Positions 105 to 26,431 of a DNA stretch of 37,688 bases are shown piece by piece (the stretch's first letter is position 1; each line of letters begins with the position of its first letter). This DNA is from Armatimonadia bacterium (GTDB taxonomy: Bacteria > Armatimonadota > Zipacnadia > Zipacnadales > UBA11051): assembly GCA_039683575.1 (NCBI GenBank), contig JBDKRC010000022.1, positions 1-37,688 of the forward strand, read 5' to 3'. The notes under the pieces were generated by a model. The model searched no databases, was not told where the DNA came from, and saw only the letters and a list, made by a program, of their open reading frames with translations. The position numbers and the translations under genes were made by a program.

Positions 105-992
105 CTAGCGGACGGCCGCTCGCAGCAGCGCCAGGCAGCCCAGCCCGTAGTAGGTGTACTCGACGTCAGGCTCGTGGTCTGCCGGCGAGGCCTTGAAGCC
201 CCCGTCGGGAGCCGCGGCCGCCCGGACGAAGCGGGCAAGGTTGCCGAGGTTCAGACGGTCCAGCCCGTCGAGACCAGCCAAGGTCAGCAGCGCCGTGAAG
301 CTGCTTAGCAGGTCCCCCTCCGTCGCCCACGGGTGGGCCAGGAAGCCCCCATCCGCTGCCTGCATCTTCACCAGAAAGCCCTCGGCATGTCGGGCTTGTC
401 GCTCGGTCAGCACCTCCGCCGACAGCAGGAACGCCACTGCTGCCGCCGTGGCGCTGGTCTGCTCGCCCCCCTCGCCCTGCTGCTCGCGGAAGCCCCCGTT
501 CGGCTGCTGCAGTGCAGCAATGGCCTGAGCGGCCTCCAACCGCCGTGGCATGGTCTCGTCCAGCATCTCGTAGACCAACCCCGCCAGAAAGGTCGTGTAG
601 GCGCTGCAGACGTGGCTTCCGGGACGGGCGAAGGCGCCGCTGTCCAGCGCTTGACACTGGAGGGCCTCTTGGATCGCCTGGCGCGCGGGCGTCGGCTCAT
701 CGAGCAAGCGACGGCAGTTCAGCAGCGAAAAGGCCTCCAGGACCTCATGCACGGGCACTTGATCGAGGTAGGCCACTGTGGCCTTCGGCAGCCGATCCTG
801 TCCCCCGAGCAGCGTCACCGTGCGCAGCGCAAAGTCCGTGTAATACAGGTCCGACGTGCCCTGCCGGCCCCGGAAGCCGCCGTCGGGCTGCTGCTGGGCC
901 AGCACAAAAGCAAGCTGGGCCTCGGCGAAATCCTCACCGAGGCCCTGCAGACCGTCTTTCAACAGCGCGTCCACTATTTCGAGGTAGCGCAT
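105..992 (-). CDS. Prenyltransferase/squalene oxidase repeat protein (single alpha/alpha barrel, GGTase-beta-like)
   Basis: Repeated QxxDGGF motifs (QQPDGGF, QQPNGGF, QAADGGF, APDGGF), SDLYYTDFA and DVEYTYYGLG; starts 2 nt after the upstream stop. Confidence 0.85.
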   Translation of the reverse strand: MRYLEIVDALLKDGLQGLGEDFAEAQLAFVLAQQQPDGGFRGRQGTSDLYYTDFALRTVTLLGGQDRLPKATVAYLDQVPVHEVLEAFSLLNCRRLLDEPTPARQAIQEALQCQALDSGAFARPGSHVCSAYTTFLAGLVYEMLDETMPRRLEAAQAIAALQQPNGGFREQQGEGGEQTSATAAAVAFLLSAEVLTERQARHAEGFLVKMQAADGGFLAHPWATEGDLLSSFTALLTLAGLDGLDRLNLGNLARFVRAAAAPDGGFKASPADHEPDVEYTYYGLGCLALLRAAVR

Positions 993-994
993 CG

Positions 995-2725
995 CTATCG
1001 CTTCCGCAGCACATTACGCGCCAGGAACCTCAGTAGCTCCTGCAGCGCCGGTTCGCCGAGTTGGCCTGCCATGTCCAGGGCCCTCTCGCGCAATCGCGCG
1101 TACAGCACCTCGGCCCGCTCCATCGCGCCCAGTGAGACATATAGCTCCCTGACGCGCTCCACGACCACCGCAGGCTCTTCCTGCAGCCGCGCCTCGCGCG
1201 TCAGCGCCGCGAGTTGCTGAGCCCCGCCCGCCTCCAGCGCAAACGCCCGCAGTATGGTCGGCCGCCCCGCGATGATGTCGCGGCCCAGGGCGAGTTTGTT
1301 GTTGCTCTCCTCTTCCCAGTCCTCCAGATCGTTGTAGACCTGGTAGCCCTCGCCGATGTACACCGCGAACTGGCGCAGTGTCTCGTGCGGAAGGTCAACC
1401 TCGGCCGCCCGCAGCCCTGCGTAGAGGGCCACTTCAAAGGCTGGCGCGGTCTTCAGCGCCCCGATCTGCAGCGCATGCACGGGCCGGAGGTCGTCAGCTT
1501 GATGCTGGTTCCACAGGAGTTCGGTGCCCTGTCCGCAGCATAGCTGCAGGTGAGCCGCCGAAAGACGGTTGAGGATGTCCGCGACAGCCTGCGCGCCCAG
1601 TTCCGGCCCCTGCGTGGCGATCAGGCGGTAACCGAGCCCGACCAGATAATCACCAACGTTGATTGCAGCTTCGATGCCGTGCCGCTGGTGGATCGTGGGT
1701 TGCCCGTAGCGGAAGGAGTCCTTGTCCTCGATATCGTCATGCACCAGCGACGCCTTGTGGAGGGCCTCGATAGCCACCGCGAGTCGCCGCACGGGCAGCG
1801 GCAGCAGGTCTTCCACCTGCGCCTGAGCCGACAGGGCCTCGGCACCATGCTTGCCAACCGCGTAGGCCGCAAGGGTGATGAAGGGCCTGAAGCGCTTCCC
1901 CCCGAGCCGCAGCCACTGGCGCGCAATGGCATCGGTCGCTCCCATCGCGCCTGCAGCTTCCCCGGTGTGCGAGGCATCTCCCGAAGCCGACCGGCACGAG
2001 GACTGCTCCACTATCCGGTCGAACTCGTCGGTCTCGAAAAGCTGCCGCGTGAAGCGAAGCAGCGGCAGGTAGCTGCGATGCACCCGTTCCCCGGCCACGC
2101 CGGTGAGTTCCAGGACCTCGTGGATCAGATCCACTTCCGCCGTCGTATCAACACAGCCGTCAGTCAGCAGCGGAATGGCCTGATGGGGAATGCCGAGATC
2201 GGCGATGCGCTCGAAAGACTTCTCGAGAGATTCGAGGCAGGCCACGCCGAGAATGGCGTCGGCCTCGCCCTCAAGGACTTTCACAACCACTGAAGAGGTG
2301 CCTTCTGCCACTACGACACTGTACCCCAGCGCCTCTGCGTGCTCTTTCAGGCCCTGAATCTCGCACGCGCCACAGCCGACACAGTTGAGCCCAATAGTGT
2401 CGAAGGTGCCAGGACAGTGGCCGTGCTTGCTCAGGCACTTGGGCAGTAGGAGCAGGCGGCGGTTTTGCGGCGTCGCCTGATATTCACCACGCCAGAAAGC
2501 GTTGTCCACCGCGACCATCGCGAAGCCGAGGTACTCCTGCGGCAGTTCGAGACGCCGCAATACCTCGCGCCCCGCCTCCTCCAGAGCCTCGCGGCCAGGC
2601 GGCGTCTGGTGGCTCAGGGCCGCCCCCAGAGCCGCCGCTTCCCGGCGCACAGCCAGCCGGACCTCGCAGACCTGCGGGACCTGCCTGATGTCCGGTTCGG
2701 AGTTGACGGCGTCAGCTACGGTCAT
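995..2725 (-). CDS. DUF116 domain fused to trans-polyprenyl diphosphate synthase
   Basis: N-terminal LLLLPKCL, CVGCGAC and GVACL (DUF116-like); C-terminal GGKRFRP, first Asp-rich motif LVHDDIED..RYG, GQ, KT and second motif YQVYNDLED. Confidence 0.85.
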   Translation of the reverse strand: MTVADAVNSEPDIRQVPQVCEVRLAVRREAAALGAALSHQTPPGREALEEAGREVLRRLELPQEYLGFAMVAVDNAFWRGEYQATPQNRRLLLLPKCLSKHGHCPGTFDTIGLNCVGCGACEIQGLKEHAEALGYSVVVAEGTSSVVVKVLEGEADAILGVACLESLEKSFERIADLGIPHQAIPLLTDGCVDTTAEVDLIHEVLELTGVAGERVHRSYLPLLRFTRQLFETDEFDRIVEQSSCRSASGDASHTGEAAGAMGATDAIARQWLRLGGKRFRPFITLAAYAVGKHGAEALSAQAQVEDLLPLPVRRLAVAIEALHKASLVHDDIEDKDSFRYGQPTIHQRHGIEAAINVGDYLVGLGYRLIATQGPELGAQAVADILNRLSAAHLQLCCGQGTELLWNQHQADDLRPVHALQIGALKTAPAFEVALYAGLRAAEVDLPHETLRQFAVYIGEGYQVYNDLEDWEEESNNKLALGRDIIAGRPTILRAFALEAGGAQQLAALTREARLQEEPAVVVERVRELYVSLGAMERAEVLYARLRERALDMAGQLGEPALQELLRFLARNVLRKR

Positions 2726-2867: not shown

Positions 2868-4226
2868 CTACTGCGTCCCCAGACACCACATCTTCGTCAG
2901 CCCACGAACATATACCCGATTACCTTCAAAGACCGGACAGGAGCGGAAAGGTTCCAGCTTGAGCCGCTTGACCTCTTCATACTGCCGGCCCGGCTTGACG
3001 ACGATGGTGACGCCCTTGTCATTGCTGACATAGAGCAGACCACCGGCGAAGGTAATGGCGGGGTAGAAGGTCGGCTTTTCGTTCAGCGCCTGCTCGTAGA
3101 TCACCTGTCCGTTAGCGGCGTCTACGGCGCTGAGAATCCCCACCTGCGTCACGCAGTAGATGATGCCCTCGTGCAGCACGGAGGCAGCATAGTAGCGGTC
3201 CTTGCGCACCTGGGTCTCCCACAGTGGCGTGAGGGGATCAGCGGCGGTCGCCGGCAGTTTCCACGCTTTGCCGCCGTTCTGGATGAAATAGACGTTGCCA
3301 TCGGCCAGGATGGGATCACCATACTCAAGGCGCGTGAGCTTCTGGGCGAGTACTTTGCCGTCGCTGGCCCGTACGAGGTCACCAGCCGGGGTGACGATGA
3401 TCTCGGTGTCACCGATCTTGCCAACCTGCGGCGTGCCCCAGCTCTCGGCCAGGCGCGTCTTCCAGATCGTGTTACCTGTCATTGGGTCAAGAGCCATCAA
3501 GTTCAGAATATGGATGATGAGTTTGCCGTCGGCCAGCACGGGCGAGCAACTGTGCCCCCACTCGATGACAGGCTTCTCGAAGTACTTGCGCCACACGAGC
3601 TTGCCTTCAAGATCATAGCAGGCGGCGATGCCGTGGTTGAACAGCACCCAGACGTGCTTGCCATCGCTGACCGGGGTCGGGGTTGAGAAGCCGTTGATCT
3701 GGTACGTTTTGGGCAGTACATACCACTTCTCAAGACCGGCAATCTGCTCGTTGAGAGTCTTCACTTCGCCCTTGAGGCCCTCGATCTTGGCCTTCAGTTC
3801 GGCGTCGTCGGGCTTGTCCTTGAGTTCAGTCTGCAGCTTGTAGATCTGCCCCTGCTTCTGGCCCGCCTGCTTGCGCAAGTCGGCAACCTGGGTGTTGGTG
3901 GCATCAATCTGCGCCGCTTCCTCGGGCGTCGCCACGTCCTTGTAGCCGTTGGCGGACTGCCAGAGCACGCTGCCGTCGGTCTTGGACAGACACATCAGCG
4001 TGTCCGGTTCGGTGCAGATGAAGATGCGGTCGCCAACGATAACGGGCGTGGCGTTGCTCCAGGAGGGAAGGGGGACCGACCAGATGACATTGCTGTCAGG
4101 GGCCCAGTCAGCGGGCGGGGTGGCTGTGGGGTATTTTCCGGTGCCGTCGGTGCGCCAGCCAACGGGGGCGGCGGTGAGACCTGAAACCAGCAGCAGCAAA
4201 GCCAGACAAGCCACGGCTACACGCAT
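2868..4226 (-). CDS. Secreted PQQ-like/BamB-type beta-propeller protein with a coiled-coil insertion
   Basis: Signal peptide; WRTDGTG, NVIWSVPLP..SNATPV, STPTPVSDG and SPVLADG propeller motifs; AAAGGAG ribosome-binding site. Confidence 0.85.
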   Translation of the reverse strand: MRVAVACLALLLLVSGLTAAPVGWRTDGTGKYPTATPPADWAPDSNVIWSVPLPSWSNATPVIVGDRIFICTEPDTLMCLSKTDGSVLWQSANGYKDVATPEEAAQIDATNTQVADLRKQAGQKQGQIYKLQTELKDKPDDAELKAKIEGLKGEVKTLNEQIAGLEKWYVLPKTYQINGFSTPTPVSDGKHVWVLFNHGIAACYDLEGKLVWRKYFEKPVIEWGHSCSPVLADGKLIIHILNLMALDPMTGNTIWKTRLAESWGTPQVGKIGDTEIIVTPAGDLVRASDGKVLAQKLTRLEYGDPILADGNVYFIQNGGKAWKLPATAADPLTPLWETQVRKDRYYAASVLHEGIIYCVTQVGILSAVDAANGQVIYEQALNEKPTFYPAITFAGGLLYVSNDKGVTIVVKPGRQYEEVKRLKLEPFRSCPVFEGNRVYVRGLTKMWCLGTQ

Positions 4227-4241: not shown

Positions 4242-6095
4242 CTACCTTACTGTTTTAGCAAATAGTAGATTACTCGCTCGCCCCAGCGCCTCGACCGTCC
4301 AGACCACCGGATAGAGCACTTCACTATACCATAAACTGGCGAAGTAGAGACCAATGGGAGTGGGGCGAGTCCACGTCCCGTCTTCCACATTCCGCAATAG
4401 ACACTCGAGCCCCTGCAGCAGTGCCTCCGAGGATTCGCCCATCGCTGCCAGAGCCGCCAGTGCCAGAGCGGTTTCCTCGGCGGAAGTGTCCACTCCTGCT
4501 GCCCCGCCCCAGCCGCCGTCCGGGTTCTGCGCAGAGAGAAGATACTGCAGGCCGCGCTGGGTCATTTCGCTCTGAGGCTCAAGCTCGGCGAGCGCGAGCA
4601 GGACCCGAGCGGTGCCAAAGACCGGGTTGAGATGGCCCTCGGTGTACTGGTTGCCAAACCACAGCGGCACCCAGGAGCCGTCGGGGCGCTGGCGGCGGCG
4701 GAGGTAGGCCAGGCCTCGGATAGCGCTTCCGCTGTAGGGCGGGGGCTCGTACCCCGCCGTCTGGTCGTTCGGGCACGGCTGCGGCGGGGACTCCGCCGCT
4801 TGGTTGGTCGGTGATAACGGCTGCGGCGGGGCCGCCGCCGCTTGGTTGGTCGGTGGTAACGGCTGCGGCGGGGTACGAGCCCCCGCCCTACAGTGAGAAA
4901 GGGCCCGCAGCGCGTGGGCCGTGATGTCGTCGCAACTGGCGTCAAACGGCAGCTTGCCCCACCCACGGCAGAAGGTCGGCCATCCGCCGTCGCTGTTCTG
5001 CAGGTCTACCAGCCACTTTCGGCCTGATTGCAGTGCCTTCTCATCCAGATACCCCGCTAAGGCCAAGAGCGCGCCGGAGGTGTCGTCTGCATCAGGGACC
5101 GCGCCGGGAAGATGGCTCCAGCCCCACCCGCCGGGCGAGGCGCCGGTGAAGGGATGAACCTGCGTGTACTGCCGCTCTGCCAGCCACGCGAGGGTTCGAG
5201 CCGCCTCCGGCTCGGGAAGCCCTCCAGAGTGCGCCAGTGCATTGAAGGCGCTTGAGGTCACCCATACGGAGAGGTTGGTGTCAATCGGCCAACTGCCGTC
5301 AGCGCGCATGGACTGACGGAGAAACTGGAGGCCCTGTTTGAGCGAATGCTGATCGCCATGGCCGACAGAGAGCAATGCCATGCACACAAAGGCGGTCAGT
5401 GGGGTCGCTTCGAGGTAGCCACCCGATTGTGGCTGCAAAGCAATCAGCTTGCGGAGAGCCGCACGGGTAACCACTCGCCGAAGAGGCGAGGCGAACGCAT
5501 GGCCGATCGGACGGTGATACTCGATGGCGATGCCGATGGCGATGAGAGCGGGGAGGGCGTAGCTGACGACCTGCAGCGGGGTGTGTCGGAGGAGACTCTG
5601 GGGTACGACCGACCACTCATAGGGCAGCGGTGGCACGGCATGCCAGTCCACCAGGCCCGCCAGCGCGCAGTTCATGAGGATGGGGACAGCAAAGGTCCTG
5701 TCTGCGCCGTAGAGCCGGGTGATGGCCTGCACGCGCGCCTGGGGTGTGTCGGCGCCGTGGTCTTTGAGGTAGGCTTGGGATGCTTCGTCTGGCGTCTGTC
5801 CCGCCAGGATCAGCGCGGAACACACCAACAGCGTCGTCGCGAGGTTGCTCGGACTATCCGTCGTGTCACCCCAGCCGCCATCCTCGTTCTGCGTCTGGAT
5901 GAGCCACTCCACGCCCGCCTCGATTAGCGGACGGTCCTGTTCGAGCTTAGCGAGGCACAGGGCGCTTACCGCCGTGGCCGTTGAGAGCGCCGAGGAAGAC
6001 AGGTAGCCCTCCCAGTAGGTGCCGTCCACTCGTTGCGCCAGCAGATGCTGGCGCGTGGTCTCAAGCGCCTGCTGCAGCCGCTCGGCGTTGATCAC
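4242..6095 (-). CDS. Squalene-hopene cyclase-like class II terpene cyclase carrying an in-frame palindromic insertion
   Basis: WEGYLSSSALSTA; QW repeats (QNEDGGW, QNSDGGW, QRPDGSW, QNPDGGW); catalytic-type PDADDT at 5082-5093; GTG start overlaps the upstream TGA (GTGA). Confidence 0.88.
   Translation of the reverse strand: MINAERLQQALETTRQHLLAQRVDGTYWEGYLSSSALSTATAVSALCLAKLEQDRPLIEAGVEWLIQTQNEDGGWGDTTDSPSNLATTLLVCSALILAGQTPDEASQAYLKDHGADTPQARVQAITRLYGADRTFAVPILMNCALAGLVDWHAVPPLPYEWSVVPQSLLRHTPLQVVSYALPALIAIGIAIEYHRPIGHAFASPLRRVVTRAALRKLIALQPQSGGYLEATPLTAFVCMALLSVGHGDQHSLKQGLQFLRQSMRADGSWPIDTNLSVWVTSSAFNALAHSGGLPEPEAARTLAWLAERQYTQVHPFTGASPGGWGWSHLPGAVPDADDTSGALLALAGYLDEKALQSGRKWLVDLQNSDGGWPTFCRGWGKLPFDASCDDITAHALRALSHCRAGARTPPQPLPPTNQAAAAPPQPLSPTNQAAESPPQPCPNDQTAGYEPPPYSGSAIRGLAYLRRRQRPDGSWVPLWFGNQYTEGHLNPVFGTARVLLALAELEPQSEMTQRGLQYLLSAQNPDGGWGGAAGVDTSAEETALALAALAAMGESSEALLQGLECLLRNVEDGTWTRPTPIGLYFASLWYSEVLYPVVWTVEALGRASNLLFAKTVR
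4732..4893. repeat. REP-like doublet, family A (GTAG type), inside the cyclase CDS
   Basis: Perfect 28-bp inverted repeats at 4732-4759 and 4866-4893 (ctgtagggcgggggctcgtaccccgccg); internal 42-bp tandem repeat; total length 162 bp = 54 codons. Confidence 0.93.
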
Positions 6096-7591
6096 GGCGC
6101 CGCAGCCTTCCTGGCGCGGAGCAGCCGCCGCCACATCACGACGTTGCCCTTGCCAAGCGCCTGGATGAGCATCCGTCGTGCCGCGCTCACTCCAGCAGCC
6201 TTCTGGCCGTCAGCATACAGCCGTGGCACCCAGCGGAAGTTGAACTCGTAGGCCTCCTGCATGAGTTGCCAGTGCAGCCGGGTGAGGTTCGGCAGTGGCT
6301 CGCCTTGCACGGGAGCATAGATGACCGGGAAGATGGTCACCGGGCGGCCCTGCAGCGCTCGTACCCAGTCGAGCGTCTGCTGGATATCCTGCGGGGTCTC
6401 GCCGGGCAGCCCGACAACCAGTGACGCCATGGGGACGAAGCCGAGGCGCATCAGGCGCTCCAACTGCTCGCGGCAGAAGCCGCCCCAGTCTTCAGGCGCG
6501 GTGCGGCCCATCTTCGGCCTTCCGCCATTGGCCTGCAGAAGCTGGCCGGAGGCGGTCTCGATGCCGATATTGAACCAGGGGTAGCTGAGCGGAGTGCGGC
6601 CCGCGCCGCCAGCCAGCAGGCGACGCACCTCTGCAAGCTCGTCGTCGCTATACGCGGCGATGCTGATCACATTCACGTGATCTGCCTGCACGAGGCGCAA
6701 GCGCGGTAGGGCGGCGATGCGGCTCAGGAGCGCGATGAGTTCGGCGGGGCGGCAATTCAGGCCCTGCCCGCCGTAGCGCAGCAGGTCCTCACTGAGGATG
6801 GCGATGCTGGTCTGGCCGGCGCAGATATTGGTCTGGATGTCGGAGAGTATCCTGTCGGGCGGCAGATGCTGCATGGGGACGTTGCCGATAGTGCAAAACT
6901 CGCAGCCCAGCCCGCAACCGCGGCTGATTTCGACCACGCCCATGGTGCTGGCCCCGCGCAGCAGGGGGATGCGGTCTGCCGTAACCGGTTGGCCGTCGAT
7001 CACTGCGGGAAGCTCGCGCCCCTCGGCGAGGTCGCGCACGATCTGGGCTACGTTGCCCTCCGCATAGCCGAGCACAACATGGTCCACGCCCAGTTCCCGG
7101 CGCTTGGCGGGGTCATTGGCGAGTTGCCACGCCCCCGGCCCCCCGAGGAGTACCTTAGCCTGCGGGGCGCGCTCACTCACGATGCGCCGCACCTGCTGCA
7201 GGAGCTTGCGGAACATCGCCTGAGGGTAGATCTCGCCCCCAGCGACGCCGGTCATGGTGGAACTGCTCATTCCGAGGCCCACGGGCTCGCCGGAACTAAC
7301 CGCCACGACGCGGGTCTCGGGGCCAATGGCGTCGGCGAGATGGGCATCGTCCACCGTCACAAGCTGCTCAGGTGCAAGGCCGCCCTCCAGCAGCGCCGAT
7401 TCGACGCGACGCAGGCCAAGCGGGGCCACTGGCGCCTGTCCGTTGAAGTGTCTGGCGCGGGGGAGCAGCAACCGTTCGATGAGGGGAGCGGGAGACGAGG
7501 TGGTCTGGCTGGAGGCGAGCATACCGTCGAGCAGCACGGTGTACTGCGCCATGAGAGTCCGATCGGCGGTAAGGACTATGCGGTAGGCCAA
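6092..7591 (-). CDS. Radical SAM protein with an N-terminal B12-binding-like domain (COG1032 type), resembling the Grs/Gms family
   Basis: EISRGCGLGCEFC (CX3CX2C, 6893-6916), GGPGAWQL and IGIETAS; N-terminus IVLTADRTLM..APLGLRRVESAL. TTG start at 7591 was chosen because it follows the ferredoxin stop; the ORF track extends to 7630. Confidence 0.85.
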   Translation of the reverse strand: MAYRIVLTADRTLMAQYTVLLDGMLASSQTTSSPAPLIERLLLPRARHFNGQAPVAPLGLRRVESALLEGGLAPEQLVTVDDAHLADAIGPETRVVAVSSGEPVGLGMSSSTMTGVAGGEIYPQAMFRKLLQQVRRIVSERAPQAKVLLGGPGAWQLANDPAKRRELGVDHVVLGYAEGNVAQIVRDLAEGRELPAVIDGQPVTADRIPLLRGASTMGVVEISRGCGLGCEFCTIGNVPMQHLPPDRILSDIQTNICAGQTSIAILSEDLLRYGGQGLNCRPAELIALLSRIAALPRLRLVQADHVNVISIAAYSDDELAEVRRLLAGGAGRTPLSYPWFNIGIETASGQLLQANGGRPKMGRTAPEDWGGFCREQLERLMRLGFVPMASLVVGLPGETPQDIQQTLDWVRALQGRPVTIFPVIYAPVQGEPLPNLTRLHWQLMQEAYEFNFRWVPRLYADGQKAAGVSAARRMLIQALGKGNVVMWRRLLRARKAAAP

Positions 7592-7592
7592 T

Positions 7593-8372
7593 TCAGTTGC
7601 CCCCGCCGGTGATCTGGTCGAGACGGTCAATCAAGTCGTCAATCTCCTTCAGCATCGGCGAATCAGACGGTCTTGGGAGCTGGCGGCCACACTCGGGGCA
7701 GGTACCGTCGGGCATGACCTGCGACAGCTCGGCAGAAGGCTTCTGGCAGACGGTGCAGACCTTGCCGGTCCGCGTGTAGAACATCCGCCGCGCCTCGGCA
7801 TCGCGCTCCACTTTGCGCCCCGGCGCCCCGGCAATGGCCGGGTCCTGAGCGTACAGCGGGAACATGATCGCGCCCTGCGGGCAGACCCGCGAGCAGGCGG
7901 GGCAGCCGGCCTTGCAGCTGTCGGGATTGGTCACGCACACCTGCCCCCCCGCGTCTTGTTCGTAGACGCCGAAGAGGCAGAACTGGAGGCAATGGTGGCA
8001 GTTGGTGCACTCGGCGCGGTCAACGACTGGGTACCATCGCTCACGAGCAGGCTGCTCGACCTCAGGCCTCCGGGATTCGGGAGCCTCGGCGGCGGGCTCG
8101 ATTGTGTGGAATTCCCAACCCTCGGTACGAACGGCGTGCCGCCGCAGTAGCCACTCCGTCGCCCGTGGATACAGCGGGCCGTAGACCGTGGCAGGGCCAT
8201 CGAGGTTGCGCAGCGCCTCCCACACGGGATGATCGTCGTCCAGGTGGTAGAGGTCAGGCAGCACCATCGTCTCGCGCCCGGCGGCAGCTTCAGCAGCGGC
8301 CAAGGCCTGCGCCGCCGCGTCATATTGCGGGTCCCGGGGATGCTTGATAATCACGATTGTGAGCGGGCTCAT
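7593..8372 (-). CDS. 2x[4Fe-4S] ferredoxin-family protein with a C-terminal CxxC..CxxC
   Basis: WYPVVD..CTNCHHCLQFC and CKAGCPACSRVCP; CTVC..CPEC tail; ATG at 8372 preferred over the extension that reads through a repeat. Confidence 0.82.
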   Translation of the reverse strand: MSPLTIVIIKHPRDPQYDAAAQALAAAEAAAGRETMVLPDLYHLDDDHPVWEALRNLDGPATVYGPLYPRATEWLLRRHAVRTEGWEFHTIEPAAEAPESRRPEVEQPARERWYPVVDRAECTNCHHCLQFCLFGVYEQDAGGQVCVTNPDSCKAGCPACSRVCPQGAIMFPLYAQDPAIAGAPGRKVERDAEARRMFYTRTGKVCTVCQKPSAELSQVMPDGTCPECGRQLPRPSDSPMLKEIDDLIDRLDQITGGGN

Positions 8373-8621: not shown

Positions 8622-10229
8622 ATGGATAATCAGCCGGGTGTTCCGCGGGACGATGAGACCCTGAATGTTGAGCTTGAAAACAAACCGGCGCCGCAGCAGA
8701 AGCCGCTCGTCGTGAAGGGCGTGGGGGAGAAGCGGCGGTTGGGCGATTGGCTCATCGTGGCCGGCATCCCGGGCGTGGTGGCGATCGTCGGTATTGTTGC
8801 GATGGTGCTATGGCTGCGTGGGGAGCCGCAGGTGAAGGCTGGAGACCGGCGCGTGCCGGGCCAACAGGTGGCCGTAACGCCACAACAGACGCCCTCGGCA
8901 GGCCCGCAGGGCGTTACGCCCGCACAGCCGACGCCATCGGGCTCGGCAGCTACCACCGCAACGGCACCGGGCACGACGACCACCACCACCGGCGGGGGAG
9001 CCTCGACGTCAGCCCCGTCGGCTTCTTCGGGGTCACAGGTGCTGGGTGAGCAGGTCGGCTCCTCAGGCAGTTGGCCCTGTTTCCGTGGGGCGAACCGCAA
9101 CGGGATTAGCGGCGAGACGGGCCTGGCGCGAAGTTGGGGGTCTGGGCCCAAGCGGCTCTGGAGCGTCAGCCTGGGCGAGGGTCACGCGGGAGCGGCGGTC
9201 GCCAACGGCAAGGTCTACATTCTCGACTATGACGCCGGAGCGCGCAAAGACGTCCTGCGCTGTCAGAACCTCAGCAATGGCAAGACGCTGTGGACCCAGG
9301 GCTATGCGGCCGACATCAAGCGCAACCACGGCATGTCCCGCACCGTACCGGCGGTAGACGGCAAGTATGTGGTGACCCTCGGCCCGCTCGGGACAGTCAT
9401 GTGCTGCGATACGGGCAACGGCAAGGTGCTCTGGAAGAAGAACCTGGTACGTGAATACGGCACAGTCATCCCGCAATGGTACGCGGGGCAGTGCCCGCTG
9501 ATTGAAAACAACAATGCGATCATCGCACCCGGCGGCAAGGCTCTGATGATTGCCATCCACCTGCCGACTGGCAAGATCACGTGGACGACCCCGAACCCGC
9601 GCGGCTGGCAGATGACCCATGCCTCCATTACTCCCACGAGCTTCGGCGGCAAGCGGATCTACATCTATCCGGCGAGCGGCGGGGTAGTCGGAGTGAATGC
9701 CCGCGATGGCAAGATCCTGTGGGACACTCCTGAGTGGACGGTCAACACCTCAAACATCCCGGCGCCGATTGCTATCGGTGACGGGCGCGTGTTCTTCTGC
9801 GGCGGCTACAACTCCGGCGCGATGATGGTGAAGATGAACGACAGCGCCACGGCGGTAAGCAAGCTCTTCCGCGTGGCCCCGAACACCTTCCAGTCCCACC
9901 AGCAGACACCCATCCTGTACAAGGGCTACCTGTATGGTGTGAAGGTGCCAGGTGAGTTGGTCTGCATGGATCTCAACGGCAAAATCGTGTGGTCCAGCGG
10001 CAGCACCGCGCGGTTCGGGCTCGGGCCGTACCTGCTGGCCGATGGGATGCTGTATGTGCTGAGCGACAAGGGCGAGCTGGCGCTGGTGGAGGCTTCCCCG
10101 TCGGGCTACAAACAGTTGGCCCGGGCGAAAGTGCTGAAGGGCCCCGACGCATGGGCGCCAATGGCCCTGGTAGATGGCAAGCTGCTGTGCCGTGATATGA
10201 CGACGATGGTGTGTCTGGATGTGAAGTAG
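8622..10229 (+). CDS. Membrane-anchored PQQ-like/BamB-type beta-propeller protein
   Basis: One N-terminal TM helix and a Pro/Thr/Ser linker; WPCFRGANRNG, LWSVSLGEGHAG and WAPMALVDGKLLCRD. Confidence 0.87.
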   Translation: MDNQPGVPRDDETLNVELENKPAPQQKPLVVKGVGEKRRLGDWLIVAGIPGVVAIVGIVAMVLWLRGEPQVKAGDRRVPGQQVAVTPQQTPSAGPQGVTPAQPTPSGSAATTATAPGTTTTTTGGGASTSAPSASSGSQVLGEQVGSSGSWPCFRGANRNGISGETGLARSWGSGPKRLWSVSLGEGHAGAAVANGKVYILDYDAGARKDVLRCQNLSNGKTLWTQGYAADIKRNHGMSRTVPAVDGKYVVTLGPLGTVMCCDTGNGKVLWKKNLVREYGTVIPQWYAGQCPLIENNNAIIAPGGKALMIAIHLPTGKITWTTPNPRGWQMTHASITPTSFGGKRIYIYPASGGVVGVNARDGKILWDTPEWTVNTSNIPAPIAIGDGRVFFCGGYNSGAMMVKMNDSATAVSKLFRVAPNTFQSHQQTPILYKGYLYGVKVPGELVCMDLNGKIVWSSGSTARFGLGPYLLADGMLYVLSDKGELALVEASPSGYKQLARAKVLKGPDAWAPMALVDGKLLCRDMTTMVCLDVK

Positions 10230-10235
10230 CGCCTC

Positions 10236-10312
10236 CCGCGCAGTGCGGGCGTCTCGCCCGCTCGGTACGGTGGCGACGCGGGGCCTGCGGGCGAGACGCC
10301 CGCACTACGCGG
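10236..10312. repeat. REP-like doublet, family C
   Basis: 26-bp inverted repeats at 10236-10261 and 10287-10312 with one mismatch; arm = GTAG + t + gcgggcg-tct-cgcccgc. Confidence 0.88.
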
Positions 10313-10334
10313 TTGGTTTGAGAAGTCCGATCAC

Positions 10335-11312
10335 ATGAACGAAGAGCTACCCATGCCCCGAAGGCAACAGTCGTTAACGGTGATCGTGATTGTGGCGTTG
10401 CTCGCGGCAGCGGGGCTGCTGTACAACTACGTGCGCGTCGGACGCGCTGTGTCCGGCCAGGCGGACCGGGCTGTCGTGACGCAGACGCAGGGCTTCGAGC
10501 GGCTGCGGCAGGTGGATCCGGCGCTGGTGAAATGGCGCGAGGTACGCGAGATTCAGTTGGGCACTTCGGGTGCCAAATCGTTCGATGTTGATCCCAAAGG
10601 CAACTTGTACGTAGTGGATGGGACGACACTGCGCACGTGGTCGCTGCAGAAGCCGGATCAGGCGCCGTCCGTGGTGCCGGTGCAGGCCGATCTCGTGAAC
10701 TTCAGCGGTGAGTTGTGGCTGGCGACGGAAGCTTCCATGCGAGACGGTGCGGGCTCGGTCGTAACGGACGTCGAGCGCCAGGGCAAAGAGCAGTGGGTGG
10801 CGGATGCGGGGAAGCGCGTTGTGAAGCATATCGCTGCTGACGGAAGCGTCACGCTGATAGGGAAGGGGCAGTTGATACTCCCCAGCCCGCATCTGGAGCT
10901 GGCCCTGAAGCCCGATGGGAACCTGATCGTGAACAACCCCGGCAGGCTGCGGGTGGAGACCTACTCGCCACAGGGGAAGCTGCTCGGGCAATTTGGGCGG
11001 CCTGGCGTGGACATAGAGGGCTTTTCGGGGTGTTGTAACCCCATTGATGTGGCGGTGCTGCCGGACGGGCGCATCGTGACGGCAGAGAAGGGTTTGCCGC
11101 GGGTGAAGGTGTATAGTGCAGACGGGAAACTGGACAGTGTCGTGGCGACACCGGCGGACCTGTCGCGGCAGGCAGTGCCGCAGATCACTGTGACCAGGCA
11201 GGGGGAGATACTCGTATTGGATGCGAGAGCAGGGGTTGTGAAGGTGTTTGCGCCGAAGCAACCAGAGAAGATTGCCGGGCCCGCTAAGCAGTGGTATCTA
11301 AGTAGTGTGTGA
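10335..11312 (+). CDS. Membrane-anchored NHL-repeat beta-propeller protein
   Basis: N-terminal TM helix; WVADAG, NNPGRLRVETYS and FSGCCNPIDVAVLPDGRIVTAEKG; start may be ATG 10353. Confidence 0.8.
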   Translation: MNEELPMPRRQQSLTVIVIVALLAAAGLLYNYVRVGRAVSGQADRAVVTQTQGFERLRQVDPALVKWREVREIQLGTSGAKSFDVDPKGNLYVVDGTTLRTWSLQKPDQAPSVVPVQADLVNFSGELWLATEASMRDGAGSVVTDVERQGKEQWVADAGKRVVKHIAADGSVTLIGKGQLILPSPHLELALKPDGNLIVNNPGRLRVETYSPQGKLLGQFGRPGVDIEGFSGCCNPIDVAVLPDGRIVTAEKGLPRVKVYSADGKLDSVVATPADLSRQAVPQITVTRQGEILVLDARAGVVKVFAPKQPEKIAGPAKQWYLSSV

Positions 11313-11363
11313 AGTAGTTGAATAGTCGGACAAGCCGGGAATATCGACGACAGAGAACACATC

Positions 11364-11573
11364 ATGTATACGAGACGTGAATTTTTGCGGGACCTTGGCC
11401 GCGGCGCACTGGCGCTGGGGTTTGGCGGCGGGCTGGCGGCGCTCATTGGTCGGGGTGGCTCGCGCTGTTTGAAGGCTGACCTTTGCGGCGACTGCGCCGA
11501 GCTTGGTCGCTGCCGCAAGCCTCAGGCCGTGGCGGCGCGGCAGACGAGGCAGAAGGATCACCCTAATGGCTGA
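11364..11573 (+). CDS. Small Tat-signal-like protein with four Cys (CX5CX2CX5C)
   Basis: MYTRREFL followed by a hydrophobic stretch, then CLKADLCGDCAELGRC; its stop overlaps the next start. Confidence 0.65.
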   Translation: MYTRREFLRDLGRGALALGFGGGLAALIGRGGSRCLKADLCGDCAELGRCRKPQAVAARQTRQKDHPNG

Positions 11574-12150
11574 TAAGGTAATCCACCCGGACGAGAAGCG
11601 TGTGATCACGCGGCGGCAGTTCCTGGGCCATTGTCTGCGCGGCGCGGGGGTATTGGCCGTGGGCGGGCTGACCGGCGGGCTGCTCCATGCCGGGGCCGAG
11701 CGTGGCGACATGGTCTGGCAGATTGACCCGAGCCGCTGCATCGGCTGCGACAAGTGCTCCAAGTCCTGTGTCATCAACCCCTCCGCGGTCAAGTGCATCC
11801 ACGAGCAGGCCCTGTGCGGCTACTGTAACCTGTGCTTCGGTTACTTCGCCGATCAGCGCACCGCCGACACGCCGGGCGCCGAGAATGAACGCTGCCCGAC
11901 GGGAGCCATCGGCCGCAGCTTCGTAGAGGATCCCTATTACCAGTACGTCATTGACGAGCCGAAGTGCATCGGCTGCGGACTGTGCGTGAAGGGCTGCAAG
12001 ACCTTCGGCAACAGTTCACTGATCCTGCAGGTACGGCACGACCGCTGCCTGAACTGCAACGAGTGCGCCATCGCGGCGGTGTGCCCGGCGGATGCCTTTG
12101 TGCGGGTGCCGGCCAAGACGCCGTATCTGTTGCGAGTGAAGAATACCTGA
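11566..12150 (+). CDS. Tat-signal poly-[4Fe-4S] ferredoxin (NapG/MauM-like architecture)
   Basis: TRRQFL motif; CIGCDKCSKSC, CGYCNLC..CP, CIGCGLCVKGC and CLNCNEC..CP; AAGGA upstream of ATG 11566. Confidence 0.85.
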   Translation: MADKVIHPDEKRVITRRQFLGHCLRGAGVLAVGGLTGGLLHAGAERGDMVWQIDPSRCIGCDKCSKSCVINPSAVKCIHEQALCGYCNLCFGYFADQRTADTPGAENERCPTGAIGRSFVEDPYYQYVIDEPKCIGCGLCVKGCKTFGNSSLILQVRHDRCLNCNECAIAAVCPADAFVRVPAKTPYLLRVKNT

Positions 12151-13457
12151 TGCGCAGAATGCTTTTGTTGACAGTGTCGCTGATGGTTTCAGCGGCGGGC
12201 TTCGCCGCTGAAAACTTTCCGCGGCCGGAGTTCACGCAAGGCGAAGTGCTGCCTCCGACGACCACGCCACCGCCGAGGGCAGAGATATTCTCCCTGGTCG
12301 ACGTGGCTGTCCTGGGGCTCATGTTGGCGCTGGCTGCATATTTCAGCCTGCGGCAGCGTTCGCGGGCCAACCTCGTGCTGCTGGCGCTGTTGGGCCTGGT
12401 GTACTTCGGGTTCTACCGTCACGGCTGCGTGTGCGCCATCGGGGCGATTCAGAATGTTGGCTATGCGCTCGGCGGCAATGGGTACGCGCTGCCGCTGGTG
12501 GTGGGGCTATTCTTTGCCCTGCCCTTGCTCTTTGCCCTGTTCTTTGGGCGAGTGTTCTGCGCCGGGGTCTGCCCCTTGGGGGCGGCGCAGGAGGTTGTGC
12601 TGCTCAAGCGGGTGAAAGTGCCGACGTGGCTGGACAGCACGCTGAGCATGCTGCCGTTCATCTATGGCGGCGTCGCGGTGCTGTACGCTGTGACTGGCAG
12701 CGCCTTCCTGATCTGCCGCTATGACCCGTTCATCCCGTTCTTCCGTCTCGGCGGCACGGACCTGATGCTTGGGATTGGCGTGGGTGTGCTGCTGCTTTCT
12801 GTGTTTGTAGGGCGGCCATATTGCCGGTACCTATGCCCCCTGTCGGCCCTGCTACGTCTGGCCGCCCCGCTGTCCAAGTGGCGGCCGCAGATCACGCAAC
12901 ACGAATGCATCAACTGCCACCTGTGCGCGGATTCCTGCCCGTATGGCGCCATCCGCCCGCCGACGCCATCGGGTGAGAAGTACAACCGCCGGGCCGCGCG
13001 CCGGTCGCTGGGCTGGCAACTGCTGCTGATTCCCTTGTTCATCGGCATCGGCGGGGGACTGCTGCGGCTGAGCAGCCCCATGCTCGCGCGGGTGGACTAC
13101 CGGGTGCGGCTGGCCGAGACGCTTTGGCTGCAAGAGCAGGGCGGGGCATCCCAGACCACGACGGCGCCGCCGCCGATGCTCGAGGCTTACGACAACCGCG
13201 AGTTGCCGTACGCGCTCGCTTACCAGCGGGCCATCGCCATTCAGAAGTGGTTTGATACGGGGGCCTGGGCTCTTGGCGGCTGGATCGGCCTGCTGTTCGG
13301 GCTGAAACTCGTGGGCCTGATGCTCCGGCGACGGCGGGAGACGTACAGCATTGATCCGGGTGCCTGTGTGGCGTGTGGAAGGTGTTATAGCGTGTGCCCG
13401 CTGGAGCGATCTGAGGGCGACGCTGGCGAGCCGCCGGTAGTGGCTCGTACGGCCTGA
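12150..13457 (+). CDS. Polytopic membrane 4Fe-4S protein (NapH/MauN/NosR C-terminal-like)
   Basis: Multiple TM helices; CAGVCP and CRYLCP (CX3CP) motifs; CINCHLCADSCP and CVACGRCYSVCP; TGATG coupling to the upstream gene. Confidence 0.85.
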   Translation: MRRMLLLTVSLMVSAAGFAAENFPRPEFTQGEVLPPTTTPPPRAEIFSLVDVAVLGLMLALAAYFSLRQRSRANLVLLALLGLVYFGFYRHGCVCAIGAIQNVGYALGGNGYALPLVVGLFFALPLLFALFFGRVFCAGVCPLGAAQEVVLLKRVKVPTWLDSTLSMLPFIYGGVAVLYAVTGSAFLICRYDPFIPFFRLGGTDLMLGIGVGVLLLSVFVGRPYCRYLCPLSALLRLAAPLSKWRPQITQHECINCHLCADSCPYGAIRPPTPSGEKYNRRAARRSLGWQLLLIPLFIGIGGGLLRLSSPMLARVDYRVRLAETLWLQEQGGASQTTTAPPPMLEAYDNRELPYALAYQRAIAIQKWFDTGAWALGGWIGLLFGLKLVGLMLRRRRETYSIDPGACVACGRCYSVCPLERSEGDAGEPPVVARTA

Positions 13458-13525
13458 CGTTTGTAGCAAATCCGTAGCAATTGATTCACCGTGTATCGTT
13501 CGCGGCGCGCGCTTTGGGAGGCGTG

Positions 13526-15541
13526 ATGATGACTGACGAGTTTCCTGCCGTCCCGGCAGGTAGTGACCGAGCGAAGCTCTACCAGCGGGCCACGCTGATT
13601 ACAGCGGCGGTGGCCCTGGTGTTTTGCCTGGTTGTCCTGGGCCTGCTGATCAACAACACCGTGCAGGCGCGGTACTACGACCCCGTACAATCCTCGCAGA
13701 TGACGCTGCTCAAGGCCGAACTGGCCAAGCAGCCCACCAATCAGCAACTAATCGAGCAGGTCGGTACACTCGATGACTATATCCGTGATCGGTACTTCCT
13801 GACACGCTATCAGGCGGTCGTGGGCCTGTACCTGCTCTTGGGCGGGGCAGCCGTGCTGTTGCTAGCCCTGCACTTTTTCAACCGCCTCCAGTACAAAGCG
13901 CCCCTGCCGCTGTTCATTGAGCAACACCAGGCGTGGCTGCAGGCGGCCTTGGCGCGCCGGGCCATTATCATAGCGGCGGCGGTGGTGCTGGCTGGGATGC
14001 TGACTTTGGCGGTGTTGTCGCGCCATGACGCGGCGGCGGCGTATGCCAGATCCGGTCCGGCCGTACCGCTCGACCTGATGGCTCAGTCCTTCCCCAACCA
14101 ACCGCCGGACAGCGGCATGATGCCGCCGACAGGAATGCCCTCGATGCCGTCCATGCCCAGCGAAGGCATGCAGGGCCCTCCGGGGCCTGCAGGGCCCGCG
14201 GGACCTCCCGGACCTCCGGGAATGTCTGGACCTATGGGACCATCGGGTGCGCGTGGACGTCGCGGGGAGCGTGGCCCGGCCGGGCCTGCCGCCAAGGTTG
14301 CGAAAGCCCCAAAGCCCAAGCCTGAGCCGACAGGGCCGGGAGTCGCGGTCGAGGGTGGTCTGAAGCCGGAGGACCTGGTGAAGAATTGGAATGCGTTCCG
14401 GGGTCCCCTGAGCGGCGTTGCGACGGGTGACAAGTACCCTACAAGCTGGGATGCGACGGCCGGCAAGGGTGTCCTGTGGAAGGCGCCGGTGCCGCTTGAA
14501 GCGCCGAACTCTCCGATCTACTATGGCGGCAAGCTGTTCATGACTGGCGCGACTGACAAGCAGCGCGAAGTCTATGCCTACGATGCAGCCAAGGGCAAAC
14601 TCCTGTGGAAGAAGACCGTCAAGCCCAGCAGCGCTGAGCAGCCTGATGTGAGCCCCGACGCCGGCTATGCCTCGCCCACGATGGCTTGCGATGGGCAGCG
14701 CGTGTTTGCCATGTTCGCCGATGGCGATGTGGTAGCGTTCGATCTCGACGGCAAGCAGGTGTGGGACAAGCCGCTGGGCAAGCCGGACAACGTCTACGGA
14801 CACGCGTCTTCGCTTGCGGTATACAAGAACCTGCTGATCATTCAGTACGATCAGGGGCAGAGCGGCGACGATGGCCTGTCCGACGTGATCGCGCTGCAGA
14901 CCGCCACGGGCAAGAACGCCTGGCGCACGGCGCGGCCGGTGCCGGCGACGTGGAGCAGCCCCCTGGTGATCAACACGGGGCAGCGCGACGAGCTGATCCT
15001 GTGCGGCAACCCCTTTGTGATCTCCTATGAACCCGCAACGGGCAAGGAACTGTGGCGGGCAGAGTGCCTCAGCGGCGAGATCGCTCCCTCGCCCTGCTAC
15101 GCCGGTGGGCTGGTGTTCGCGGCCCAGGACGGGGCTGGCCTGTTCGCAATCCGCCCACCCGAGCCGGGCAAGGGCGACAAGGGGACTATCGCCTGGCAGG
15201 CCCAGGATGGACTTCCCGACACCGTCAGCCCCGTGAGCAATGGCGAGTACGTCTGGCTTACCACCTCCGCCGGTCTCGTGACGTGTTACGCGGTGGCCGA
15301 TGGCAAGAAGCTGTGGGAATATGACGTCAAGGAAATGGTGCAGGCCACGCCGGTTGTAGCGGGCAAGGGTCTGTACGTGACCGACGAGAAGGGCGTCACT
15401 CACATCCTCGAGGTCGGACCAACCGCAAAGGCACTGGGCTCCGGCAAAGTCGGGGACAAGGTGCGGGCGACCCCGGTGTTTGTGGACGGCAAGATCTTCA
15501 TGCGTGGTACAAAGACGCTGTTCGGTATCGGAGCGAAGTAG
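13526..15541 (+). CDS. Three-TM protein with a collagen-like stalk and a PQQ-like beta-propeller
   Basis: GGAGG ribosome-binding site; three hydrophobic segments; 14 G-X-Y triplets; [25 protein letters not shown] and WSSPLV motifs. Confidence 0.85.
14165..14290 (+). repeat. Collagen-like (G-X-Y)14 coding repeat
   Basis: [42 protein letters not shown]. Confidence 0.9.
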
Positions 15542-15563
15542 CAGTCAGAAGCGGAGACCATCT

Positions 15564-16901
15564 ATGAGTTCGACCGTTACCTTACCGCCCGTGCCAGTTG
15601 CGGGCGAGTTCGATGTCATAGTCTGCGGAGCCGGCCCTGCGGGGCTCGGCGCGGCTCTCGCCGCGGCACGACGCGGAGTGCGGACGCTGCTGCTGGAGCG
15701 CATGGGGGCGGTCGGCGGGCAGGGCAGTCACCTGCCGGTCAATACGTGGTGTGACACCCCCGGCGGCAAGCTGTTCGATGAGTTGGAAAGCAGGCTGGCG
15801 GCGCTGGGCAAAGTCCGGCGGGAGTTCTCTCCGGATAGGCATGTCTACCCACGGGGCCGCGCAGTGCTGGAGCGCGAGACGCTCAAGCTCGTAGCAATGG
15901 AGATGCTCCTGGAAGCCGGTGTGGAGGTGCGTCTGGGGACGGCCTTCGTGCAGACGCTGACTGAGGGCGAGCAAGTCACCGGCGTCGTCGTAGCCGACAA
16001 AAACGGGCTCTACGCCTTGTCAGCGAAGGTCGTGATAGACTGCACCGCCGATGCGGATGTGGCCGCGAGTGCCGGGGCTGAGTGCCGCAAGGGCGAGCCC
16101 ACCGACGGCCGCCTTATGCATGTGAATTACATGTTCGAGATACTCGGAGCTGACCGACAGCGCTACGAGGCTGAGAAGCCGGCCACCGAGGACCTGCTGG
16201 CGATGATCGCAGAGGCGCGGGAGCGTGGGGAGTTGTCCGCCCCGCCGGGCGCCTTCCGGCCGCTGGCCAAGACCTTCCCGTACGTTGCCGCTGAAGACGT
16301 GCTCGCACTCAACTCCTGGGAGATCGAGGGTGTGGATTGCTCGGACTGGGCGGCGGTCAATGAACTCTTGTGTCGGTGTCAGGCCATCGCGCTGCAGGTC
16401 GTGCGCTTTGCGCGCAAGTACCTGCCGGGGTACGAGAACTGCTCCGTGGGGCGGGTGTGGGATGTGCTGGGGACACGGGAGTCGCGTCGGCTGGTGGGCA
16501 AGTCGACACTGACCGGAGACGAGATTCTCTCAGCCCGCAAGTTCGACGACGGAATCGAGCAGGCCACGTTCTTCATTGATTTCCACGACTCGCCGCCGGG
16601 GCGCAGCATCCCCTACACGCAGGACTTTCGCGTCAGTCACGCCCCGTCGCTGGGCGACTGGTACGAGATCCGCTACGGGTGCCTTGTCCCCGAGCGCGTG
16701 ACGGGCCTGCTGGTCGCAGGCCGCTGCATCTCCGCCGAGCGCGAGGGTCTGGCCTCGATGCGCGTGATGCCCTCGTGCATGTTCACCGGCGAGGCCGCTG
16801 GTACTGCCGCGGCGCTGGCCGTGCAGCGTGGGGTACGGCCGCACGAACTGGATGGGCGCGAGTTGAAGCCGCTGGTGATGACGCCGGATAGGTTGATGTG
16901 A
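15564..16901 (+). CDS. FAD-dependent oxidoreductase (FAD_oxidored/PF12831-type)
   Basis: DVIVCGAGPAG, IDCTADAD, RESRRLVG, YEIRYGCLVP, LLVAGRCIS and RVMPSCMFTGEAAG; GGAG before ATG 15564. Confidence 0.88.
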   Translation: MSSTVTLPPVPVAGEFDVIVCGAGPAGLGAALAAARRGVRTLLLERMGAVGGQGSHLPVNTWCDTPGGKLFDELESRLAALGKVRREFSPDRHVYPRGRAVLERETLKLVAMEMLLEAGVEVRLGTAFVQTLTEGEQVTGVVVADKNGLYALSAKVVIDCTADADVAASAGAECRKGEPTDGRLMHVNYMFEILGADRQRYEAEKPATEDLLAMIAEARERGELSAPPGAFRPLAKTFPYVAAEDVLALNSWEIEGVDCSDWAAVNELLCRCQAIALQVVRFARKYLPGYENCSVGRVWDVLGTRESRRLVGKSTLTGDEILSARKFDDGIEQATFFIDFHDSPPGRSIPYTQDFRVSHAPSLGDWYEIRYGCLVPERVTGLLVAGRCISAEREGLASMRVMPSCMFTGEAAGTAAALAVQRGVRPHELDGRELKPLVMTPDRLM

Positions 16902-16907
16902 CCTTGA

Positions 16908-16991
16908 TCGCGTGGTAGGCATACTCCGTATGCCGGAACATGGACGAAGGCAGTCACGAGTCCCGGCATACGGAGTATGCCTACCACGCGA
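16908..16991. repeat. REP-like doublet, family B, copy 2
   Basis: Perfect 29-bp inverted repeats at 16908-16936 and 16963-16991 (tcgcgtggtaggcatactccgtatgccgg). Confidence 0.92.
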
Positions 16992-17035
16992 GAAGATAGA
17001 TACGCTTTCCACGTGAGACCATTAGGAACCGAAGC

Positions 17036-26266: not shown

Positions 26267-26268
26267 GC

Positions 26269-26357
26269 GGAGGGGCCGAATGTCCGCAGCCATACCGCGG
26301 ACATCCGGCCCATGTGTGGCGCGACGGTGGGCCGGATGCTGCGCATTCGGCCCCTCC
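26269..26357. repeat. REP-like doublet, family D, copy 2
   Basis: ggaggggccgaatg/cattcggcccctcc outer and catccggccca/tgggccggatg inner inverted repeats; homologous to 2763-2861. Confidence 0.85.
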
Positions 26358-26431
26358 ATGGCATTCTGGGGCAACTTTTCTCCCGTCTCGTTTGTCAAAC
26401 GTCAACAATATCCTGAATGAGGTTACCGATT

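Follow-up and report, generated by a model that had tools for sequence, protein, structure and literature searches.

The contig JBDKRC010000022.1 of the Armatimonadia bacterium assembly GCA_039683575.1 (Armatimonadota; Zipacnadia; Zipacnadales; UBA11051), the 37,688 nucleotides of which are here called the window, encodes a radical S-adenosylmethionine (SAM) enzyme of the superfamily of Grs, the synthases that form cyclopentane rings in the glycerol dialkyl glycerol tetraethers (GDGTs) of archaea. The feature is real, and it is a Grs-type enzyme in a terpene cassette: its gene stands between a ferredoxin-like gene and a gene for a class II terpene cyclase, and a polyprenyl synthase (PPS) is encoded in the same unit. 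The enzyme probably tailors the isoprenoid of this cassette by radical chemistry.

The gene lies on the minus strand, and the open reading frame (ORF) given for it in a program-made list extends from 6092 to 7630. The upstream gene ends in a TGA, which a single base separates from a TTG codon at 7591, and homologues align from query residues 2–5, that is, starting at this TTG. The stretch from 7591 to 6092 is therefore taken as the gene. One public gene call puts the start at residue 14, by which the conserved first motif is cut off.

6092..7591, minus strand: gene for the Grs-superfamily radical SAM enzyme, 499 amino acids, TTG start
6893..6916, minus strand: codons of the CX3CX2C motif (C226, C230 and C233), the ligands of the radical SAM [4Fe-4S] cluster and the only invariant cysteines in a 57-sequence alignment

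The translation holds IVLTADRTLM, APLGLRRVESAL, AIGPETRVV and GGPGAWQL, and CGLGCEFC (CX3CX2C) occupies residues 226–233 of the 499-residue form. The stop codon TGA (6094..6092) overlaps a cyclase-frame GTG (6095..6093), the two together reading GTGA. The initial annotation of this DNA had described a CX3CX2C radical SAM ORF with these four motifs and a stop codon overlapping the cyclase start, and this description is confirmed, on the minus strand. The consensus of 29 distant relatives reads IVLTADRT, APYGLRK.EA.L, VGGPGAWQL and RGCGRGC.FC; the quoted motifs are the most conserved blocks of this alignment and no chance matches.

A search of 1.84 billion cluster representatives finds 810 relatives at E ≤ 1e-3, which sort into a tight family of at least 40% identity and, beyond it, many full-length proteins of about 30% identity. 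Among the 120 listed, the closest homologues (53–97% identity) come from metagenome-assembled genomes (MAGs), and nine bear organism names, seven of the Armatimonadota type and two of the Planctomycetes/Planctomycetota type (53–56% identity). The named relatives at about 30% identity are archaeal (Bathyarchaeia, Archaeoglobaceae, Methanopyrus, Thermoprotei and Lokiarchaeota), and one further cluster is labelled Bryobacteraceae. Matches at E ≤ 1e-10 occur in 276 of 301 Thermoproteota genomes, a tally that takes in one genome flagged as unpublished (G497); the best of them has an E-value of 1.3e-75, and the identity is 33–37% over residues 1–476.

The genome G282 has two strong matches, and the one encoded at 199.5 kb shows 100% identity to P0484, named Sulfolobus acidocaldarius at NCBI. 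PF04055 is matched 18 times in this genome, and 18 radical SAM proteins have been reported for S. acidocaldarius (PMC8941075). Four of its radical SAM ORFs exceed 500 amino acids, at 199.7, 561.6, 1353.8 and 1551.7 kb. The ORF at 561.6 kb is Tes (584 amino acids; PDB 7TOL, E 1.2e-135); it was located via the list of PF04055 matches, and a HerA-like protein and a thiamine diphosphate (ThDP) enzyme were discarded as candidates for Tes. The ORF at 1551.7 kb is a canonical cobalamin (B12) enzyme (PF02310, 78.6 bits), presumed to be Cgm. As published, saci_0240 is GrsB, saci_0703 is Tes, saci_1585 is GrsA and saci_1785 is Cgm (PMC13459092; PMC8941075; bioRxiv 10.1101/2025.10.20.683597), and the paralogues at 199.7 and 1353.8 kb are labelled GrsB and GrsA because the order of the ORFs matches this series. 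In BLASTP, the window protein is 23% identical to the 199.7-kb paralogue (P0484) over residues 3–453 (E 7e-45, coverage 90%) and 25% identical to the 1353.8-kb paralogue over residues 3–477 (E 1e-44, coverage 95%), the two paralogues being 32% identical to each other. Homologues of grs have been defined in print by a working cut-off of at least 70% coverage, at least 20% identity and E ≤ 1e-40 to both proteins (bioRxiv 10.1101/2022.08.15.504015), and these pairwise values fall within it. NCBIfam has no model for the Grs-type family; the window protein and seven archaeal relatives give the same weak matches to it. Membership of the window protein in the Grs (GDGT ring synthase) superfamily, as a full-length homologue, is supported by these comparisons. 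G282 also has a third match, short and weak (L132:880-2079, 399 amino acids, E 2.8e-7).

Trees were obtained by two quick IQ-TREE searches of 66 and 65 rows under LG+G4 and LG+C20 with posterior mean site frequencies (PMSF), with support from the Shimodaira–Hasegawa-like approximate likelihood ratio test (SH-aLRT) only. The first tree includes the 399-residue ORF of G282, on a long branch beside the GrsB-like clade; the second excludes it. The canonical B12 sequences used as outgroup (the Cgm-like L133 and L060) separate from the ingroup at 100 and 99, and the bacterial family, represented by 15 rows, is one clade with a support of 99–100 in both trees. The GrsA-like and GrsB-like clades are separate lineages on a backbone polytomy in both, and the bacterial clade stands outside either of them; an orthologue of GrsA or GrsB in the strict sense would lie inside a characterised clade, and the window protein does not. 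On these trees it is a member of a bacterial clade, separate and monophyletic, that occurs in Armatimonadota and in MAGs labelled Planctomycetota. The Bryobacteraceae-labelled clade nests among archaeal sequences, apart from the window family. Grs-superfamily genes are also present on MAG contigs labelled Fibrobacterota or 'uncultured bacterium' (L114, L121 and L092), where they lie among archaeal sequences with a clade support of 100, separate from the Armatimonadota/Planctomycetota clade.

The architecture described for Grs comprises an N-terminal Rossmann-like domain, a partial TIM barrel with CX3CX2C and C-terminal helices, with no auxiliary Fe-S cluster (PMC13459092; PMC11186832). The AlphaFold2 model of the window protein (predicted local distance difference test 95.9; predicted template modelling score 0.93) has a Rossmann-like N-terminal domain, a radical SAM barrel and C-terminal helices at 438–466 and 470–497. 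No auxiliary cluster is expected, because C226, C230 and C233 alone are invariant across the 57 sequences. Together, the model and the cysteine conservation agree with the Grs architecture. GrsA (saci_1585) and GrsB (saci_0240) of S. acidocaldarius (PMC13459092; PMC11214058) are thus akin to the window protein in full-length homology (23–25% identity), N-terminal motifs, three-part layout, C-terminal helices and the lack of cysteines for an auxiliary cluster. Unlike them, the window enzyme shares its operon with genes for a ferredoxin, a class II cyclase and a prenyl synthase. The archaeal Grs-type loci, where Gms, AttH and other diagnostic neighbours were sought, have varied contexts, none of them diagnostic. 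In four of 80 archaeal loci (including L060, L094 and L115), a canonical B12-binding radical SAM gene (about 630–650 amino acids) directly follows the Grs-type gene, and in L119 such a gene lies about 2 kb upstream; this arrangement recalls the published ted-grs co-localisation.

The cassette consists of six genes, all on the minus strand, which are probably co-transcribed, as judged from overlapping or abutting stop and start codons. Besides the radical SAM gene, they are the following.

7593..8372, minus strand: ferredoxin-like protein for two [4Fe-4S] clusters, with two CxxCxxCxxxC(P) motifs and a CxxC...CxxC ribbon
4242..6095, minus strand: divergent class II (SHC-like) terpene cyclase with DADDTS (DxDD motif) and a proline-rich insert
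2868..4226, minus strand: PQQ_2/BamB-like beta-propeller between the cyclase and the prenyl synthase, at that place in 6 of 13 genome loci
995..2725, minus strand: fusion of DUF116 (cysteine-rich, metal-binding) and PPS, two genes downstream of the cyclase
105..992, minus strand: half-size alpha/alpha-toroid (Prenyltrans repeat) protein of 295 amino acids, present in 10 of 13 genome loci

Conservation of this set was followed in a sample of 201 Armatimonadota genomes, from which the 13 genome loci were fetched, and separately in metagenome loci. The radical SAM family is present in 20 of the 201 genomes, with one full-length copy each, split over contigs in two, and the cyclase in 23, including all 20 with the radical SAM gene. 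The ferredoxin-like gene is upstream of the radical SAM gene in all 13 genome loci and in 17 of 19 informative metagenome loci. The cyclase adjoins the radical SAM gene in 12 of the 13 genome loci, and the DUF116-PPS gene is present in 11. Among 80 metagenome loci, 22 encode a radical SAM protein at least 38% identical to the window protein; where at least 1 kb of downstream sequence is available, either the cyclase or the PPS gene is next to it in 12 of 13 loci, in two gene orders. A place beside a prenyl synthase and a cyclase had been noted initially; it is borne out as a conserved cassette, but the gene directly upstream encodes the ferredoxin-like protein and the prenyl synthase lies farther off, at 995–2725.

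Several details of the individual genes are relevant to what the cassette may do. The stop codon of the ferredoxin-like gene is 1 nt before the start of the radical SAM gene, and its own start is likely M67 of a 325-residue ORF running to 8570. Its product matches Fer4 families, all below cut-off, and a prediction of its complex with the radical SAM enzyme scored 0.00, which is no evidence either way. The cyclase, whose GTG start overlaps the radical SAM stop (an alternative GTG start is at 6134), matches SQHop_cyclase_C at 142.7 bits and SQHop_cyclase_N at 85.1 bits, and its 117.6 bits fall far short of the 431.1 that NCBIfam requires of a hopene cyclase. Its proline-rich insert, at about residues 425–470, is internally repeated (PPQPL.PTNQAA twice), and cyclase orthologues align in two blocks that skip it. 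The DUF116-PPS protein has its cysteine-rich DUF116 part at the N-terminus. Its first aspartate-rich motif reads LVHDDIED, the small residues A and S standing five and four places ahead of DDIED, and its second is NDLED in place of DDxxD. Going by how such synthases control chain length, these residues suggest a product that is presumably longer than C15–C20; no NCBIfam family for PPS chain length reaches its cut-off.

A divergently transcribed set of neighbours travels with the cassette.

8622..21024, plus strand: divergently transcribed neighbour set, holding a beta-propeller, an NHL-repeat protein, two Fer4 proteins (one NapH-like), a second beta-propeller, a flavin adenine dinucleotide (FAD) oxidoreductase that is not conserved, a NuoE/F-like fusion and a GltD-like protein

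The first of these genes (8622-10229, beta-propeller) is upstream in 11 of the 13 genome loci and the NuoEF-like gene is present in nine. This set may be an electron-supply module providing low-potential electrons. NuoEF/GltD-like genes also flank the radical SAM gene in five metagenome loci (L141, L148, L158, L159 and L164). After the GltD-like gene, the window continues on the plus strand with a MacB/FtsX-type ATP-binding cassette (ABC) transporter pair (20970-21734 and 21731-25093), and further beta-propeller genes are found at 25094-27634.

The rest of the genome gives clues to the substrate. In the assembly, which is 96% complete, the search for tes that the initial annotation had proposed found none, the best match (E 8.5e-6 over 80 residues) covering only the radical SAM core, and five further cassette genomes yielded nothing better. 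A strict orthologue of GrsA or GrsB would be expected in a host that encodes Tes, i.e., makes GDGT, and in this respect also the window protein differs from one. The genome has no gene of the SQS_PSY family, and therefore no squalene route of the Sqs or HpnCD type is detected. The window cyclase is the only SHC-type cyclase in it, and the window PPS is one of three. The substrate of the radical SAM enzyme is probably the cassette's own isoprenoid and not a tetraether, because the enzyme belongs to a separate clade, its host lacks Tes, and ferredoxin, cyclase and prenyl synthase genes share its operon. 'SHC-like' cyclases of Planctomycetes have been described as retaining the catalytic residues in a genomic context pointing to a precursor that is not squalene (Santana-Molina et al., 2020, PMC7306690), and the term 'Radical SAM' is absent from the main text of that paper. 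The window cyclase, which keeps DxDD in a genome without SQS_PSY, resembles them in these traits.

Some bacteria have been proposed to make ringed branched GDGTs (brGDGTs), and the window enzyme might accordingly be a ring synthase of bacterial branched or membrane-spanning tetraethers. GrsA matches have been reported in 94 of 684 Planctomycetota and 7 of 42 Cloacimonadota MAGs, for which ringed brGDGTs were suggested, and homologues of Mss, the bacterial synthase of membrane-spanning lipids, in 7 of 13 Armatimonadota MAGs (PMC11868695); grs has also been reported in Acidobacteriae MAGs (bioRxiv 10.1101/2022.08.15.504015), and a Bryobacteraceae-labelled clade does exist in the superfamily. The Planctomycetota matches in print are probably of the same family as the window enzyme. 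In both of these sources the bacterial homologues are taken as potential brGDGT ring synthases; here, however, the gene is tied to a terpene-cyclase operon, accompanying the prenyl synthase and cyclase genes in 12 of the 13 loci fetched from genomes and in 12 of the 13 informative ones from metagenomes, and all 20 genomes with it among the 201 also hold the cyclase. No Tes homologue turned up in any of the six cassette genomes searched, a search that did not extend to Mss, so that a spanning lipid built on fatty acids might still be involved. The acidobacterial clade, moreover, branches elsewhere, within the archaeal sequences. A tetraether ring synthase is thus unlikely in this cassette.

The enzyme might alternatively carry out a different radical SAM reaction, most obviously cobalamin-dependent C-methylation of a cyclised terpenoid, as HpnP and HpnR do on hopanoids or Gmm and Cgm on tetraethers. 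Radical SAM tailoring of isoprenoid chains at unactivated carbons is indeed known from the Gmm, Cgm and Pgm methylases and the Ted desaturase (PMC11214058; bioRxiv 10.1101/2025.10.20.683597), to which canonical B12-radical SAM enzymes the window protein is only distantly related. The N-terminal Rossmann-like domain, weak NCBIfam matches to B12-radical SAM families and Foldseek similarity to the B12 methylases MgmA, TsrM, CysS and TokK (TM 0.48–0.55) speak for such an activity. In Pfam, however, the protein matches Radical_SAM at 34.5 bits and the B12-binding family PF02310 at only 17.5 bits against a cut-off of 32.1, a family that neither S. acidocaldarius Grs-type paralogue matches at all. 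The structures nearest in the PDB (MtaB, MiaB, RimO, MgmA, TsrM, AprD4, CysS, TokK and OxsB) have TM scores of 0.48–0.56, none of them close, and those with B12 (MgmA, TsrM and TokK) score much like those without (MiaB, MtaB and AprD4), so that MiaB and MtaB fit equally well. The enzyme might use cobalamin. HpnJ is rejected by TIGR03471 (14.9 bits against 577.6), and HpnR and HpnP by their absence from the 14 NCBIfam families matched at E ≤ 0.01. The Gmm/Cgm/Ted type of class B enzyme is rejected by the sub-threshold PF02310 score and by the BLASTP match to the canonical B12 enzyme of G282, which covers 93 residues (25% identity, E 2e-5); this enzyme served as the reference for the type in the comparison. 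The initial annotation would have been contradicted by a grouping with unrelated class B methyltransferases and a lack of full-length similarity to Grs or Gms; with this short match and the outgroup split at 99–100, no such grouping is seen, and a C-methyltransferase is correspondingly improbable. The same annotation had likened the enzyme to both Grs and Gms. The likeness to Grs holds in full-length BLASTP, trees and architecture, while that to Gms does not: Gms is described as a SPASM/twitch radical SAM enzyme near SuiB and AhbD that lacks any domain of the B12 type (PMC11186832; PMC11214058), and the window protein matches no SPASM family in Pfam or NCBIfam and has no conserved cysteines beyond CX3CX2C. 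A methylthiotransferase of the MiaB/RimO/MtaB type, or another radical SAM enzyme with a non-lipid substrate, is suggested by the automatic name 'MtaB family' of the top two Atlas clusters, by the PDB sequence search, which gave only RimO and TM_1862 (E about 1e-3) and no Tes, and by MtaB and MiaB at the top of the Foldseek list. It is nevertheless very improbable: TIGR00089 scores 48.6 bits against 251 (the best NCBIfam match, TIGR04013, has 69.3 against 251), the conserved N-terminal cysteines of an auxiliary cluster and a TRAM match are lacking, and similarity to Grs-type proteins, down to E 1e-75, is far stronger.

Several observations weigh against the proposal that the Grs-superfamily enzyme tailors the isoprenoid of the cassette. 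The labels GrsA and GrsB follow from gene order on a contig, with no named record behind them, and the E-values obtained per genome (2.1e-39 and 1.6e-38) are just weaker than 1e-40 and hence borderline. The reaction may differ from that of GrsA and GrsB, because the clade lies outside both on a polytomous backbone. The association also has exceptions: in the metagenome locus L143 neither cyclase nor PPS adjoins the radical SAM gene, and in G018 the gene has no adjacent cyclase, the cyclase of this genome being on another contig. Two of the three cyclase-only genomes, G021 and G026, have, in this order, a ferredoxin, a SPASM/NirJ-like radical SAM protein, DUF116-PPS, the toroid and the cyclase. 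The radical SAM protein in that slot of G021 (L137:5254-6444) has 396 amino acids, is SPASM/NirJ/AhbC-like and is unrelated to the window protein (BLASTP E 0.88). The radical enzyme seems to have been exchanged here for a non-orthologous one, and because the slot holds an unrelated radical SAM protein the cassette does not depend on the Grs type. A matching gap in L138 (G026) is the same slot between ferredoxin and DUF116-PPS. Gms, which cross-links archaeal chains, is likewise of the SPASM type, as is the enzyme in this slot. Finally, the biphytanyl chains on which Grs acts are saturated, whereas cyclisation by a class II enzyme requires a double bond, and no reductase is conserved in the cassette.

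For the tailoring of the cassette's isoprenoid by the Grs-type enzyme, we infer the following substrate, reaction and electron donor. The prenyl synthase would make a polyprenyl chain, part of which would be cyclised by the class II cyclase through protonation. The Grs-type enzyme, reduced via the ferredoxin, would cleave SAM to generate a 5'-deoxyadenosyl radical, which would abstract a hydrogen atom from one of the isoprenoid's unactivated sp3 carbons. The most likely outcome would be an intrachain C–C bond, i.e., a ring of the cyclopentane type, since this is the only activity proven in the Grs superfamily; another radical tailoring step would be less likely. C–C bond formation or methylation, together with a new lipid skeleton, had already been envisaged in the initial annotation, and might apply here. 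The product of the cassette might tentatively be pictured as an undescribed bacterial isoprenoid, namely, a polyprenyl chain part-cyclised by the class II cyclase and bearing Grs-made C–C bonds of the cyclopentane type, although so specific a structure is rather doubtful.

Among the papers covered by a full-text search, none joins a Grs-type enzyme to a terpene-cyclase operon. The compact gene set of ferredoxin, radical SAM enzyme, cyclase, prenyl synthase and toroid offers a route to the product of the 'SHC-like' cyclases, and it lets one ask whether Grs chemistry works outside tetraethers; if the proposed role is true, archaeal-style ring chemistry would operate on a bacterial terpenoid. Bacterial GrsA matches now serve to propose which organisms make ringed branched tetraethers, and palaeoclimate proxies rest on these lipids. 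If the proposal holds, matches of the window clade would point to a different lipid class, 'GrsA homologues' in Planctomycetota and related MAGs would be no markers of ringed brGDGT producers, and gene-based source assignments would need revising.

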